32,000 nt of DNA from an archaeon (GTDB lineage: Archaea > Asgardarchaeota > Thorarchaeia > Thorarchaeales > Thorarchaeaceae): positions 44,602-76,601 of the forward strand of contig JAJRZD010000019.1 of assembly GCA_024275415.1 (NCBI GenBank). The letters run 5' to 3'. This document shows, one piece after another, positions 12,824 to 17,086 of this stretch; position 1 is the stretch's first letter, and the number at the start of each line of letters is the position of its first letter. Both the position numbers and the translations under genes were made by a program. The notes under the pieces are model-generated. The model had not been told where the DNA came from. It ran no database searches and saw only the letters and a list, made by a program, of their open reading frames with translations.

Positions 12824-15419
12824 CGGGTGCATGAGTAAATTTGCTATTTGCTGTATGACTGTTGGTGGATGGCTTGGTTGGCAAACCGATGAAGGGCGTG
12901 ACAAGCAGCGATATTCCCTGGGTAGGCGCATGAAGCCTTTGATCCGGGGGTGCCCGAATGGGACTTCCTCGCATGGGTTAATACCCCATGTGGCTCCAGT
13001 GTCGCAGCTGGAGTGGGAACGCTCCGAACTGAAGCATCTTAGTAAGAGCAGGAAAAGAAAACAATAGTGATTCCCCTAGTAACAGCGAGCGAACGGGGAA
13101 CAGGCCAAACCGAATCCCATTGCGAAGAGTGATGGGAGATGTGGTGTGTGGGCACGGGATCTATCGCCGACGGACCTAAGACGAAGTCCTCTGGAACGAG
13201 GCGGCGGAGAGGGTGAAACCCCCGTAGTCGTAAAGTCCGGGCGTTTCCTGTGTTCCCGAGTAGCGCGGGTTGGTCTTCTCGCGTGAACGTCCCAGTCGCA
13301 ATCTGGGAAGCCTAAATATTATGCCAATCCGATAGCAAACTAGTAGCGCGAGCGAAAGTTGAAAAGAGCCGCGGAAGCGGGGTGAAAAGCACCTGAAACC
13401 AACAGTCTAAACAAAGGATGCTGATTAAAAGAGTAGACTCTCGGCGAACGAAAACGGAGTGATCCGTGTGTAGGAGCCGAGACGATCGGATTAGCATCAT
13501 CCGTCTTGAAACACGGGCCAGGGAGTTCACGGACGTGGCGAGATTAAGACATGAAGTCGTAAGCGAAGGGAAACCGACAAGCCCGCAGCCTTCGGGTGAG
13601 GGGCGAGGTGTGATAAGTGCCTGTAGTCACAGCCGTGACACGAGAAACCAGTCGATCTTGGCGTGGGCAGGGTGAAGCCGGGCGAAAGCTCGGTGGAGGC
13701 CCGAAAGGGTTCTGACGTGCAACTCGTTCCGTTGACCTGCGCGAAGGGGTAAAAGGCTTATCTAGACTGGTGATTGCTCGTTCTCCGCGAAGTTGGTCGT
13801 AGCCAAGCCCCACTCGAGGTATCATGTGGTGTAGAGCACTTTTGGAAGCGCCCGGGGGACGTCAAGTCCTTCACCTTCCCGAAAACTCCGAAGCTGCATG
13901 AACTGTAGACGGTGGGAGACGGGTGCCCGGGGTAAGCCCGGCAGGCCGAGATGGGGAGAACCGAGAGTATGGTTAAGGTCCCTAAGTGCCGGATAAGTGC
14001 GGTGAAGAAGGGAGTCGAGAGCCCAAGACAGTCTGGGGGTGAGCTTAGAGGCAGCTATCCCCGAACGAAAGCGTAACAGCTCACAGACCGAGGCTCTCGG
14101 CCTTGAAAATGGACGGGGCTCAATCCGGCCACCGAGACCATACAGCACACGAGTACCATCGTGTGATCTGGTAGCGGAGCGATCTGGTAGGGTAGAAGTG
14201 GGGCCGTGAGGTCCCGTGGACCTGCCAGATTTGATGATCCTGGCGGTAGTAACAGCGTAGCATGGTGAGAATCCATGTCACCGAAAGGGAAAGGGTTCTT
14301 CGGCGATGCGTCATCAGCCGAAGCTTAGTCGGTCCTAAGTGGCGTCGTAACTCGAGCGTCACGAAAGGGAATCAGGTTAATATTCCTGAACCTCGGAGAT
14401 ACATTTCACGGTAACGTAAAGCCGGGTCTGTGACTCATCTGGACAGGCCAAACGCAGCTCTCGCTGTGTTTAACACTATAAGCCTACCGAGTACCGTAAT
14501 GGTGAGAAGTAGGTGAAGGGTGGAATAGCGGGTGGTCGGACACCCGTTTGGCTCATTCCTGGTGACCTTGAAAAACAGATCCGGAAGGATTCTCCGAGTC
14601 CGTACCCAGAACTGACACAGGTTCCCTGGCTGAGAAGGCCAAGGTGTATCCGGGTCACTCCTCCTGAGGGAAATCGGCCAATTAGCGGCGTAACTTCGGG
14701 ATATGCCGTGCCTGGGTTAGTGCAAGCTTTCCTAGGTCTTAGTAACTCAGGGGTCCCAACTGTTTAATACAAACATAGCTGACTGCGAGCGGGAAACCGT
14801 TAGTACAGTCAGTGAATCCTGGTCTGTGCCTGTCTGTTAAAACTCAGAAATGGGTCGAAGCACAGGTTAACGCCGGGACTAACTATGAGTCTCTTAAGGT
14901 AGCCAAATGCCTTGTCGGTTAAATGCCGACGTGCATGAAGGGAGCAATGAGGTCCCCACTGTCCCCAGGAGGAACCGGGTGAACCCACACCATACCGAAC
15001 AGTGTATGTACGCCCAATGGGAAGAGAAGTCACTGCGGAGGTTTACTACGCAGTCTGTCGTTGCCATTTCTGATATCATACAGAGTATAGTCAGGAGCGA
15101 CGAAGCACGTTCTCCGGGACGTGTGGATGCGACCGTGTAATACTGACTATGGTATTGGGGATGGCTAACCTAGACCAAGCGAGTCTAGGGACACCGGCAG
15201 ATAGGCAGTTGGGCTGGGGCGGCACAGGGCTGACAAGAGATCAGCCCTGACCAATGGTGGACTCAGAGGCGACGGAAACGTCTCGTCGAGATCAAGGGCA
15301 TAAGTCCGCCTGACAGGATCCCTAACAGCAACGGATCCTGGGACGAAAGTCTGGCCTAGCGAACGTTTACATGCCAATTGTAGGGCGGTAGACATGACAA
15401 AAAACTTACCCCAGGGGTA

Positions 15420-16210
15420 ATCTCTAGCCGGTCGTCAAAAGGCGAGGATAATAAATACATCATTGCCATTTAATGAGTGGAAAAAAATGGAACGTTGGGA
15501 CATATCAGATGATGAAGACTTTGAGAAGGAGAATCTGGATAGACCAGAAACTCTGGTTCGAAGGTACATTGAACAGTTGTTCAAGGGTACAGATCGCATC
15601 ACTGAAACAATGTTAGCCAGCGTAAACATAGCCTATCTCGCAGGCATTACTGAAGATGCCCACCTTGGCCAAGGTGGAAAAGAAGGATATGTCTTTGACA
15701 TCGAGTCTAAATCAGAACGATGGCTCACTGACTTAATTATGCCTGCACTCAGACTTGAGATTCCTGAAAAGGAAATTAGAGTCAAACGACGTGGTACCAG
15801 ACCTGAGTATCGTATTCAGGTATGGGACAAAAAACTCGTTGAAACCCTTCGAGTATTATTCGAAAGACCTGGAATAGTCCGTCTGTGGAGTATTCGAAAT
15901 CAACGAGCGTGGGTGCGTGGTTTTGCTGATGCTGAAGGATCAGCAACTCGTAACACGGACAAACAACCACAATTTAGTTTCTACAACCAAAACTTGGAGA
16001 AACTTAAGATAGCAGGCGAAATCCTTGAAAAAGATGGAATCCACTTTGGCTTCTACCTACCAAATGGTAGAGATGTGTGGCAAATGTATCTAACAGGACG
16101 CGAGAATCTAAAACGTTTCCTTGATGGGGAAGCTTCTGGGGTGAGCCATCCTGAGAAACGTTCACGCTTACTTCAATTCCTTGCTGAGTAGCGCCGACTA
16201 GGGACCCTAA
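15420..16210 (+). mobile_element. Archaeal BHB-type rRNA intron (791 nt) in the peptidyl-transferase centre
   Basis: Interrupts CCAGGGGTA|ACAGAGTCGTC; GGGG:CCCT 4-bp helix flanked by TAA and AAA 3-nt bulges; intron stem TCTCTAG:CTAGGGA; AT-richer than the flanking rRNA. Confidence 0.9.
15463..16191 (+). CDS. Intron-encoded double-motif LAGLIDADG homing endonuclease
   Basis: Motif 1 AYLAGITEDAHLG, motif 2 AWVRGFADAEGSA, followed by FSFYNQNLEKLK; start could be TTG at 15463 or a slightly later ATG (MERW). Confidence 0.88.
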   Translation: MPFNEWKKMERWDISDDEDFEKENLDRPETLVRRYIEQLFKGTDRITETMLASVNIAYLAGITEDAHLGQGGKEGYVFDIESKSERWLTDLIMPALRLEIPEKEIRVKRRGTRPEYRIQVWDKKLVETLRVLFERPGIVRLWSIRNQRAWVRGFADAEGSATRNTDKQPQFSFYNQNLEKLKIAGEILEKDGIHFGFYLPNGRDVWQMYLTGRENLKRFLDGEASGVSHPEKRSRLLQFLAE

Positions 16211-16493
16211 ACAGAGTCGTCGCGGGCAAGAGTTCATATCGACCCCGCGGCTTGCTTCCTCGATGTCGGCTCTTGGTATCCTGGCGTTGCATAAGGCGCC
16301 AAGGGTGCGGGTGCTCACCGATTAAAACCGAACGTGAGCTGGGTTTAGACCGTTGCGAGACAGGTTGGTTTCTATCTATTGGGCGTGTTGGTCAACTGAC
16401 GGCAAGATGTTACCGGTACGAGAGGAACGTAATGTCGCGACCAATGGTGTACCCATTGTCCGATAGGGCAGCGTGGGGTAGCTAAGTCGTAAT

Positions 16494-16526
<33 letters not shown>

Positions 16527-16724
16527 AGACCGGAAAATAGTTGACCACTTAAGTGACGGTCCTACCGAAGGAGCGCGGGGCTGGTGACAGCGACGCGTAG
16601 TCACGAAACGAGGGTTCTGCTAGAAGAGCAGGTTAATAGGGCAGGGGTGTAAGTACCGAGCTCCGGCGAGGTATTCAGCTCACTGCTACTAATACCCGAG
16701 GCAAGCGAATTCAAAGTGCATCTC

Positions 16725-17057: not shown

Positions 17058-17086
17058 CCGTTGCGAGACAGGTTGGTTTCTATCTA
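17058..17086 (+). repeat. Exact 29-nt direct repeat of 23S rRNA 16350-16378
   Basis: CCGTTGCGAGACAGGTTGGTTTCTATCTA occurs at both positions. Confidence 0.95.

Follow-up and report, generated by a model that had tools for sequence, protein, structure and literature searches.

Archaeal introns that are delimited by the motif called bulge-helix-bulge (BHB), interrupt rRNA genes and encode LAGLIDADG homing endonucleases are a known class of element, so far characterised almost only in hyperthermophilic Thermoproteota. The Desulfurococcus mobilis intron that encodes I-DmoI, for example, lies near position 1950 of the 23S rRNA. In Asgard archaea, protein-spliced introns have been described in tRNA genes, and their mode of arrival has been called the central open problem (bioRxiv 10.64898/2026.10.13.758758). 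Group I introns of archaeal large subunit (LSU) rRNA genes are recorded at sites 1923, 1931, 2500 and 2593, and none at 2449-2451 (Nawrocki, Jones and Eddy, 2018, PMC6125680). In the searchable literature we found no description of rRNA BHB homing-endonuclease introns in Asgard archaea or at LSU position 2450/2451; Penev et al. (2020) mention only having taken intronic regions out of the sequences. Here we report on a 32,000-nt stretch of thorarchaeal DNA (assembly GCA_024275415.1, contig JAJRZD010000019.1), referred to below as the window, whose numbering is used throughout. Its 23S rRNA gene is interrupted by an insert that is very probably a BHB intron at position 2450/2451, spliced by EndA and RtcB and encoding a homing endonuclease related to I-DmoI. 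This is not a new kind of element. What is new is the host clade (Asgard, as a first-pass annotation of the window had supposed), the insertion site beside the omega site L2449, and the enzyme lineage.

The host gene occupies 12841..16711 on the plus strand, as do all features described here, and matches the archaeal LSU model Rfam RF02540 over its full length (model positions 1-2987, 2403 bits). A genome-wide search found no second LSU gene in the assembly (genome G000; 3.5 Mb, 93% complete), hence this gene must be functional. The Infernal alignment to the model is interrupted within GGGAUAAC|AG in the central loop of domain V, where about 800 nt are left unaligned. In silico excision of 791 nt (15420..16210) yields CCCCAGGGGTAACAGAGT, i.e. 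CCCCAGGGGTA-ACAGAGT. To compare boundaries, the region was aligned with 40 relatives and the junctions were extracted. The intron is missing at exactly this place in five intronless relatives, one of the same genus (G006) and four others (G019, G008, G015 and G025), which read TTACCCCAGGGGTAACAGAGTTGTCGCG and thus match the predicted junction base for base. With A's at both ends of the insert, the cut in the window genome itself could slide by 1 nt either way. The position is fixed by mini-introns in L006 (G016), L008 (G010), L010 (G017) and L043 (G180), which read ...GGGGTA|G/T... ...AC/AT|ACAG: starting with G or T and ending with C or T, they allow only the 2450|2451 junction. In the E. coli sequence GGGGAUAACAGGCUGAU, the two U's are D2449 and Psi2457, which makes the two A's A2450 and A2451 (in the RefSeq rrl copy that we fetched, of 2907 nt, the numbering runs +2). 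By this comparison, the insertion separates the equivalents of A2450 and A2451 in the domain V central loop, at the centre of peptide bond formation. Both the extent of the intron and its placement had been proposed in the first-pass annotation, and both were borne out.

The ends of the insert form a BHB motif. Its central helix pairs the last exon 1 bases GGGG (15414..15417, equivalents of E. coli 2445-2448) with intron CCCU (16205..16208) in four of four positions. Beside it stands an intron helix h' of 7 bp, formed by UCUCUAG (15421..15427) and CUAGGGA (16198..16204) and continued by a short CGG/CCG extension. The two 3-nt bulges are UA|A (15418..15420), with a predicted EndA cut at 15419/15420 where the junction is set by the mini-introns of the relatives, and AA|A (16209..16211), with a predicted cut at 16210/16211, after which exon 2 begins at the equivalent of A2451. 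The exon-exon helix h does not form (0-1 pair), which assigns the motif to the relaxed HBh' class, in agreement with the relaxed motif and unpaired outer helix that had been claimed earlier. The overall anatomy fits the BHB geometry of archaeal tRNAs. Boundary pairs drawn at random in the window had a 4/4 central helix combined with an intron helix of at least 7 bp with a frequency of 1.6e-5. Of the 16 introns at the 2450/2451 site that were scored, 15 retain the complete set of four central pairs. Among the 16, h' takes at least nine different forms, the two strands being complementary in every one, including UCUCUAG/CUAGGGA, UCUUUAG/CUAAGGA, UCUCAGG/CCUGGGA, AUGCGUC/GGCGCAU, CUACACU/GGUGUAG, CUGCACUU/AAGUGCAG, CUGCGCUU/AAGCGCAG, GUGGC/GCCAC and GUAAC/GUUAC. 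Exon position 2448 also covaries with its partner in the intron, the pair being G-C in Thor-type sequences and A-U in Odinarchaeia and Borrarchaeum (GGGA/UCCC); the intron base follows the exon base rather than the reverse. In unconstrained cofolding of short flanks, the BHB forms directly in L017, L030 and L008, and Thor-type sequences favour a local CCCC/GGGG hairpin, a preference that we treat as an artefact of removing helix 74 from its context.

The host also encodes the proteins that such an intron would need. The subunit type of its EndA had been named in the first-pass annotation as a point to check, and two paralogues were found (190 and 213 aa, 26% identical; in the regions C69:17555-17809 and C117:29346-29603 of G000), each with an N- and a C-terminal domain; one has the Tyr/His/Lys triad, and the other is without the His. 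This pair is consistent, by sequence, with the broad-specificity (alpha-beta)2 type of EndA, the type that accepts relaxed motifs, which has been reported as the common Asgard architecture (bioRxiv 10.64898/2026.10.13.758758). The ligase RtcB is encoded as well (582 bits).

The intron carries a gene for a two-domain LAGLIDADG homing endonuclease of the I-DmoI type (15487..16191; 234 aa plus stop), recognised by Pfam, phmmer, AlphaFold2 and Foldseek. The earlier description of this open reading frame (ORF) as an intact double LAGLIDADG gene open from the 5' edge of the intron was correct in its first part. The frame is indeed open back to 15421, just past the TAA of the 5' bulge, and its longest form begins with TTG 15463, but the former holds in the window genome only. 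The upstream frame is closed by stops in relatives and an ATG/MERW start is common to all Thor-type homologues, so the start is most likely ATG 15487; a start at TTG 15463 or at the intron edge is rejected on these grounds, and the opening to the edge is a coincidence. Pfam LAGLIDADG_3 matches the second half of the ORF (E 6e-11), NCBIfam assigns no family to it, and a phmmer search of the PDB returns I-DmoI (E 5e-5). An AlphaFold2 model built with 27 homologues (predicted local distance difference test score 86, predicted template modelling score 0.81) has two alpha-beta-beta-alpha-beta-beta-alpha domains. In the first, helices 46-57, 77-91 and 115-126 are separated by two pairs of strands, and in the second the same order is predicted with helices 136-150, 170-182 and 205-213. 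The top Foldseek match is I-DmoI (probability 1.00, target-normalised TM 0.70-0.74, 22-24% identity), followed by I-Tsp061I; both of these best matches in sequence and structure come from crenarchaeal rRNA BHB introns. Across the 27 homologues, E56/D57 at the end of LAGLIDADG helix 1 is nearly invariant, and D148-A-E150-G at the end of helix 2 is invariant. Judged from the pairwise ratio of nonsynonymous to synonymous substitution rates (dN/dS), which is 0.11-0.25 among six intron copies, the ORF is under purifying selection. About 33 nt upstream of the ATG, an A/T box, AATAAATA (15450..15457), is present in 6/6 Thor-type ORF-bearing introns and missing from the Odinarchaeia intron; it is a candidate internal archaeal TATA element. 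A purine-rich stretch also precedes ATG 15487, and a putative internal promoter or ribosome-binding site is possible ahead of the gene.

We infer the following cycle. In the pre-rRNA, the last exon bases GGGG would pair with intron CCCU, the 7-bp helix h' would stack alongside, and a 3-nt bulge would be exposed on each strand. A heteromeric EndA, made of the catalytic and the His-less paralogue, would cleave each bulge behind its second base. Ligation of the exons by RtcB would restore GGGGUA-ACAG, and RtcB would probably circularise the intron as well. At the DNA level, the monomeric two-domain enzyme would most likely cleave the intronless 23S rDNA allele around CCCCAGGGGTA/ACAGAGTYGTCGCG, and repair of the cleaved allele would copy the intron in. 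The first-pass annotation took the target to be a universal sequence of the peptidyl-transferase centre. This part did not hold: the predicted target is the lineage's own variant, with G2448, which intronless relatives have too. In 15413-15417, the window has A instead of G2444 and G instead of A2448, with one non-canonical pair flagged by Infernal; these two bases are common to intronless relatives and are therefore lineage traits that are not linked to the intron. The idea that the A2448 to G change was driven by the intron is accordingly unsupported, as intronless G019, G008, G025 and G006 also read GGGGTAAC.

The intron is a member of a family that, by sequence comparison, occupies 2450/2451 in several Asgard families, and not an isolated oddity. 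The ORF was found at the same site in Candidatus Thorarchaeota SMTZ1-45, a Promethearchaeota metagenome-assembled genome (MAG) and an Odinarchaeia MAG, among others. A survey of Asgard 23S genes had been proposed in the first-pass annotation. Our phylum survey, which yields break points only, for about 150 genomes, gave matches in 150/301 genomes; in five coded families (f1, f5, f12, f16 and f22) the break in the alignments falls precisely on the junction. Eleven of the surveyed loci were fetched and ten have an intron at the site; for L042 the 3' anchor alone was found, and L038 was too short for analysis. ORF-less introns of 335-423 nt are present in four f5 genomes, two of which are single-contig, and ORF-less versions in other families bring the overall range to 114-423 nt. 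Within the window's own genus, G000 and G001 have the intron and G006 does not. Over short exon stretches, the intron of the window is more similar to that of SMTZ1-45, from another genus, than the exons are (90.6% against 82% for exon 1), whereas in comparison with the congener G001 the intron is 68% and the exons are 89% identical. Presence and absence within a genus, ORF-less remnants and an intron identity above that of the exons across genera suggest mobility, and the distribution is indirect evidence for a homing cycle with horizontal transfer. The intron had been called an active mobile one. Polymorphism, remnants, identity discordance, a dN/dS of about 0.2 and the catalytic acids all speak for this, and the support is indirect. 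A wider reading is that one BHB-intron and endonuclease family colonised LSU 2450/2451 throughout Asgard (Thor, Odin, Borr and at least two more families) and is still moving between genera, with every stage of the homing cycle present: intact ORFs, ORF-less remnants of 114-423 nt, empty sites, and the mini-intron and free-standing gene of Borrarchaeum. This we offer tentatively, considering it possible but somewhat doubtful.

Whether the insert is removed and the exons are joined was assessed in RNA data. In a metatranscriptome-labelled library of 122 Mb, a 663-nt contig with a k-mer depth of about 1443 covers 15200-15418 and 16210-16343. It joins 15418 to 16210, skipping exactly 791 nt, with 3 mismatches in 353 nt (about 99% identity). 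A single-copy DNA locus of a 3.5-Mb genome could not reach such a depth in a run of 122 Mb, hence the contig represents rRNA. No intron RNA was seen, and with its 3 mismatches the contig may come from an intronless strain. RNA runs X6 and X15 gave short exon pieces only, or joints whose two sides are separated by 192 foreign letters, a sign of other organisms. An intron fragment of about 95% identity, without the junction, is present in DNA run X1; only parts with coverage are counted as evidence. Fragmented rRNAs exist in other lineages, and one could imagine that the insert is excised without ligation, leaving a fragmented 23S rRNA, or that it marks a non-functional rRNA gene. We regard this as very improbable: no other LSU gene was found in the assembly, which is 93% complete; the central loop of domain V would be cut by a break at A2450/A2451; the ends of the insert covary as a BHB motif, the signature of splicing by EndA and RtcB; and the highly abundant metatranscriptome contig spans the exact junction. 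Still less credible, to the point of having almost no weight, is the idea that the insert splices itself, as a group I (or group II) intron comparable to the neighbouring omega intron with I-SceI. The site does adjoin L2449, LAGLIDADG-bearing group I introns are known in archaeal 23S genes (PMC6125680), and the LSU gene of a relative, L030, has a group I intron further upstream. That very intron served as a positive control, being found by the same library as RF00028 (61 bits, L030:8-257), whereas 15380-16260 of the window gave no match to Intron_gpI or any other intron family at E up to 10, and on this basis a ribozyme is ruled out. Moreover, the part of the intron outside the ORF is only about 86 nt (about 67 + 19), too small for a ribozyme core, ORF-less versions go down to 114-148 nt, the ends form a BHB motif, and the enzyme resembles I-DmoI and not I-SceI.

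A more serious alternative, though still an unlikely one, is that the intron is spliced by EndA but no longer mobile. The protein would then be kept for another role, for example to help the peptidyl-transferase region fold or splice, as an RNA chaperone or in the manner of a maturase, or as a nuclease beneficial to the host, and the distribution would reflect vertical descent with repeated loss. Occupation of the site in at least five coded Asgard families suggests an old element, purifying selection alone does not separate a nuclease from a maturase, LAGLIDADG maturases such as bI3 are among the structural matches, and Borrarchaeum has retained a free-standing homologue outside the intron. 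Pure maturases of the bI3 type, however, usually lose the catalytic acids, and here the acidic residues at the two catalytic positions vary little or not at all among 27 homologues. BHB splicing requires no maturase, the best structural matches are active archaeal endonucleases, and an immobile intron fits poorly with introns that are more alike between genera than their exons are and with a congener that lacks the intron. Some observations do weigh against a spliced and mobile homing-endonuclease intron. The junction contig could be rRNA of an intronless close relative, and the 122-Mb run carries a 'possibly DNA' flag. The first LAGLIDADG motif, AYLAGITEDAHL, is atypical, and the assignment of the metal-binding residue among E56 and D57 is modelled only. 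The short exon stretches behind the identity discordance include variable helices; in the SMTZ1-45 contig (L026, 1362-1370), about 110 nt of the reference 23S (602-710) are missing from the alignment of exon 2, perhaps through deletion, misassembly or divergence of a helix, and the identity calculated for exon 2 is lower as a result. Lineage sorting of an ancient polymorphism could also look like horizontal transfer. Weighing all of this, we have high confidence that the insert is an intron spliced by EndA and carrying an endonuclease gene of the I-DmoI type, and moderate confidence that it is currently mobile.

Several further observations concern the intron family and its site. Candidatus Borrarchaeum weybense (G063) has at its 23S site only a 114-nt ORF-less mini-intron (L037:2442-2555; contig 339441-339554), whose ends resemble those of the Odinarchaeia intron. 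Some 1.4 kb downstream from the 3' end of the 23S gene, on the same strand, lies a free-standing gene for a homologue of the endonuclease (196 aa, 47% identity), not within any RNA that Rfam detects (L031:1195-1785; contig 341588-342178). The endonuclease may have left its intron in this organism. The ORF-less introns of 144-285 nt in L006, L008, L010 and L043 form a second sequence family, unrelated to the window intron, and have in common TGACAACTG... and, near the 3' end, CTGAGAYKCGWTCTRG. In L008 (G010) and L010 (G017), an insert of about 30 nt lies within UUAC|CCCAGGGG, some 10 nt upstream of the junction and near position 2440; that of G010 holds GATGCGTTCTGG, which is similar to the sequences that the second-family introns have in common. 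Downstream of the site, G014, G008 and G009 have inserts of 28-430 nt at the equivalents of about 16235, 16332, 16340 and 16359, and in the phylum survey the alignments of several families have a further break at query position 176/177. Thorarchaeal 23S genes seem peppered with mini-introns. Both types of intron coexist in one 23S gene of the Promethearchaeota MAG DZ2M.271 (L030), which has an ORF-bearing BHB intron at 2450/2451 and the group I intron upstream (L030:8-257). The Aigarchaeota loci L032 and L033 have a 50-residue match only, beside tRNA genes.

Outside the intron, the 23S gene of the window also deviates at sites in the peptidyl-transferase region that are usually conserved: it reads GAAGUCACUG at 15026-15035, where the archaeal consensus is GAAGACCCCG (equivalents of A2062, C2064 and C2066). 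The segment 16350-16378 is repeated perfectly, over 29 nt, at 17058-17086, which is 61659-61687 of the contig and about 350 nt downstream of the gene. In several relatives, scattered copies of 30-60 nt of the extreme 23S 3' end are present on other contigs (G017, G008, G020 and G007).

If correct, our interpretation implies that ribosome assembly in these Asgard archaea must await EndA/RtcB splicing at the centre of the peptidyl-transferase loop. It would also document a mechanism by which protein-spliced introns move at the DNA level, in a clade with unusually intron-rich tRNA genes. The enzyme combines a conserved, well-folded I-DmoI-like scaffold with a different predicted natural target of about 20 bp. 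Should colonisation of the site prove to be Asgard-wide, the family would offer a tractable natural system for the spread and decay of protein-spliced introns in the closest archaeal relatives of eukaryotes, and a source of new meganuclease specificity.

The comparison with described systems places the window intron closest to the Desulfurococcus mobilis 23S intron and to the crenarchaeal introns encoding I-Tsp061I, I-PorI and I-ApeI. Like these, it is an rRNA-gene intron with a BHB motif for EndA, and as in the I-DmoI intron a single ORF, for a monomeric two-domain LAGLIDADG endonuclease, takes up nearly all of it. It differs from the I-DmoI system in its host, a member of the Thorarchaeia and not of the Thermoproteota, in protein identity, which is just 22-24%, in its site at 2450/2451 in the peptidyl-transferase loop, and in its motif without an exon helix (HBh'). 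The yeast mitochondrial omega intron (L2449, I-SceI) is a mobile intron that likewise encodes a LAGLIDADG endonuclease, in the homologous GGGAUAACAG stretch of the LSU gene, only 1 nt away. Omega, however, is a self-splicing group I intron, whereas the window intron has no ribozyme and is predicted to be spliced by proteins. The enzymes belong to different LAGLIDADG lineages, the top 50 structural matches of the window enzyme do not include I-SceI, and the two targets differ downstream of ACAG. The archaeal LSU group I introns (Nawrocki, Jones and Eddy, 2018, PMC6125680) resemble the window intron in bearing LAGLIDADG genes, in occupying conserved LSU sites and in occurring in uncultivated archaea, but they are ribozyme-based. 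Finally, the non-canonical tRNA BHB introns of Asgard archaea (bioRxiv 10.64898/2026.10.13.758758) share with it the clade, the repertoire of motif classes (hBHBh', hBH and HBh') and an inferred (alpha-beta)2 EndA. In contrast to those short, ORF-less introns, the window intron resides in an rRNA gene and carries its own putative gene for mobility at the DNA level.

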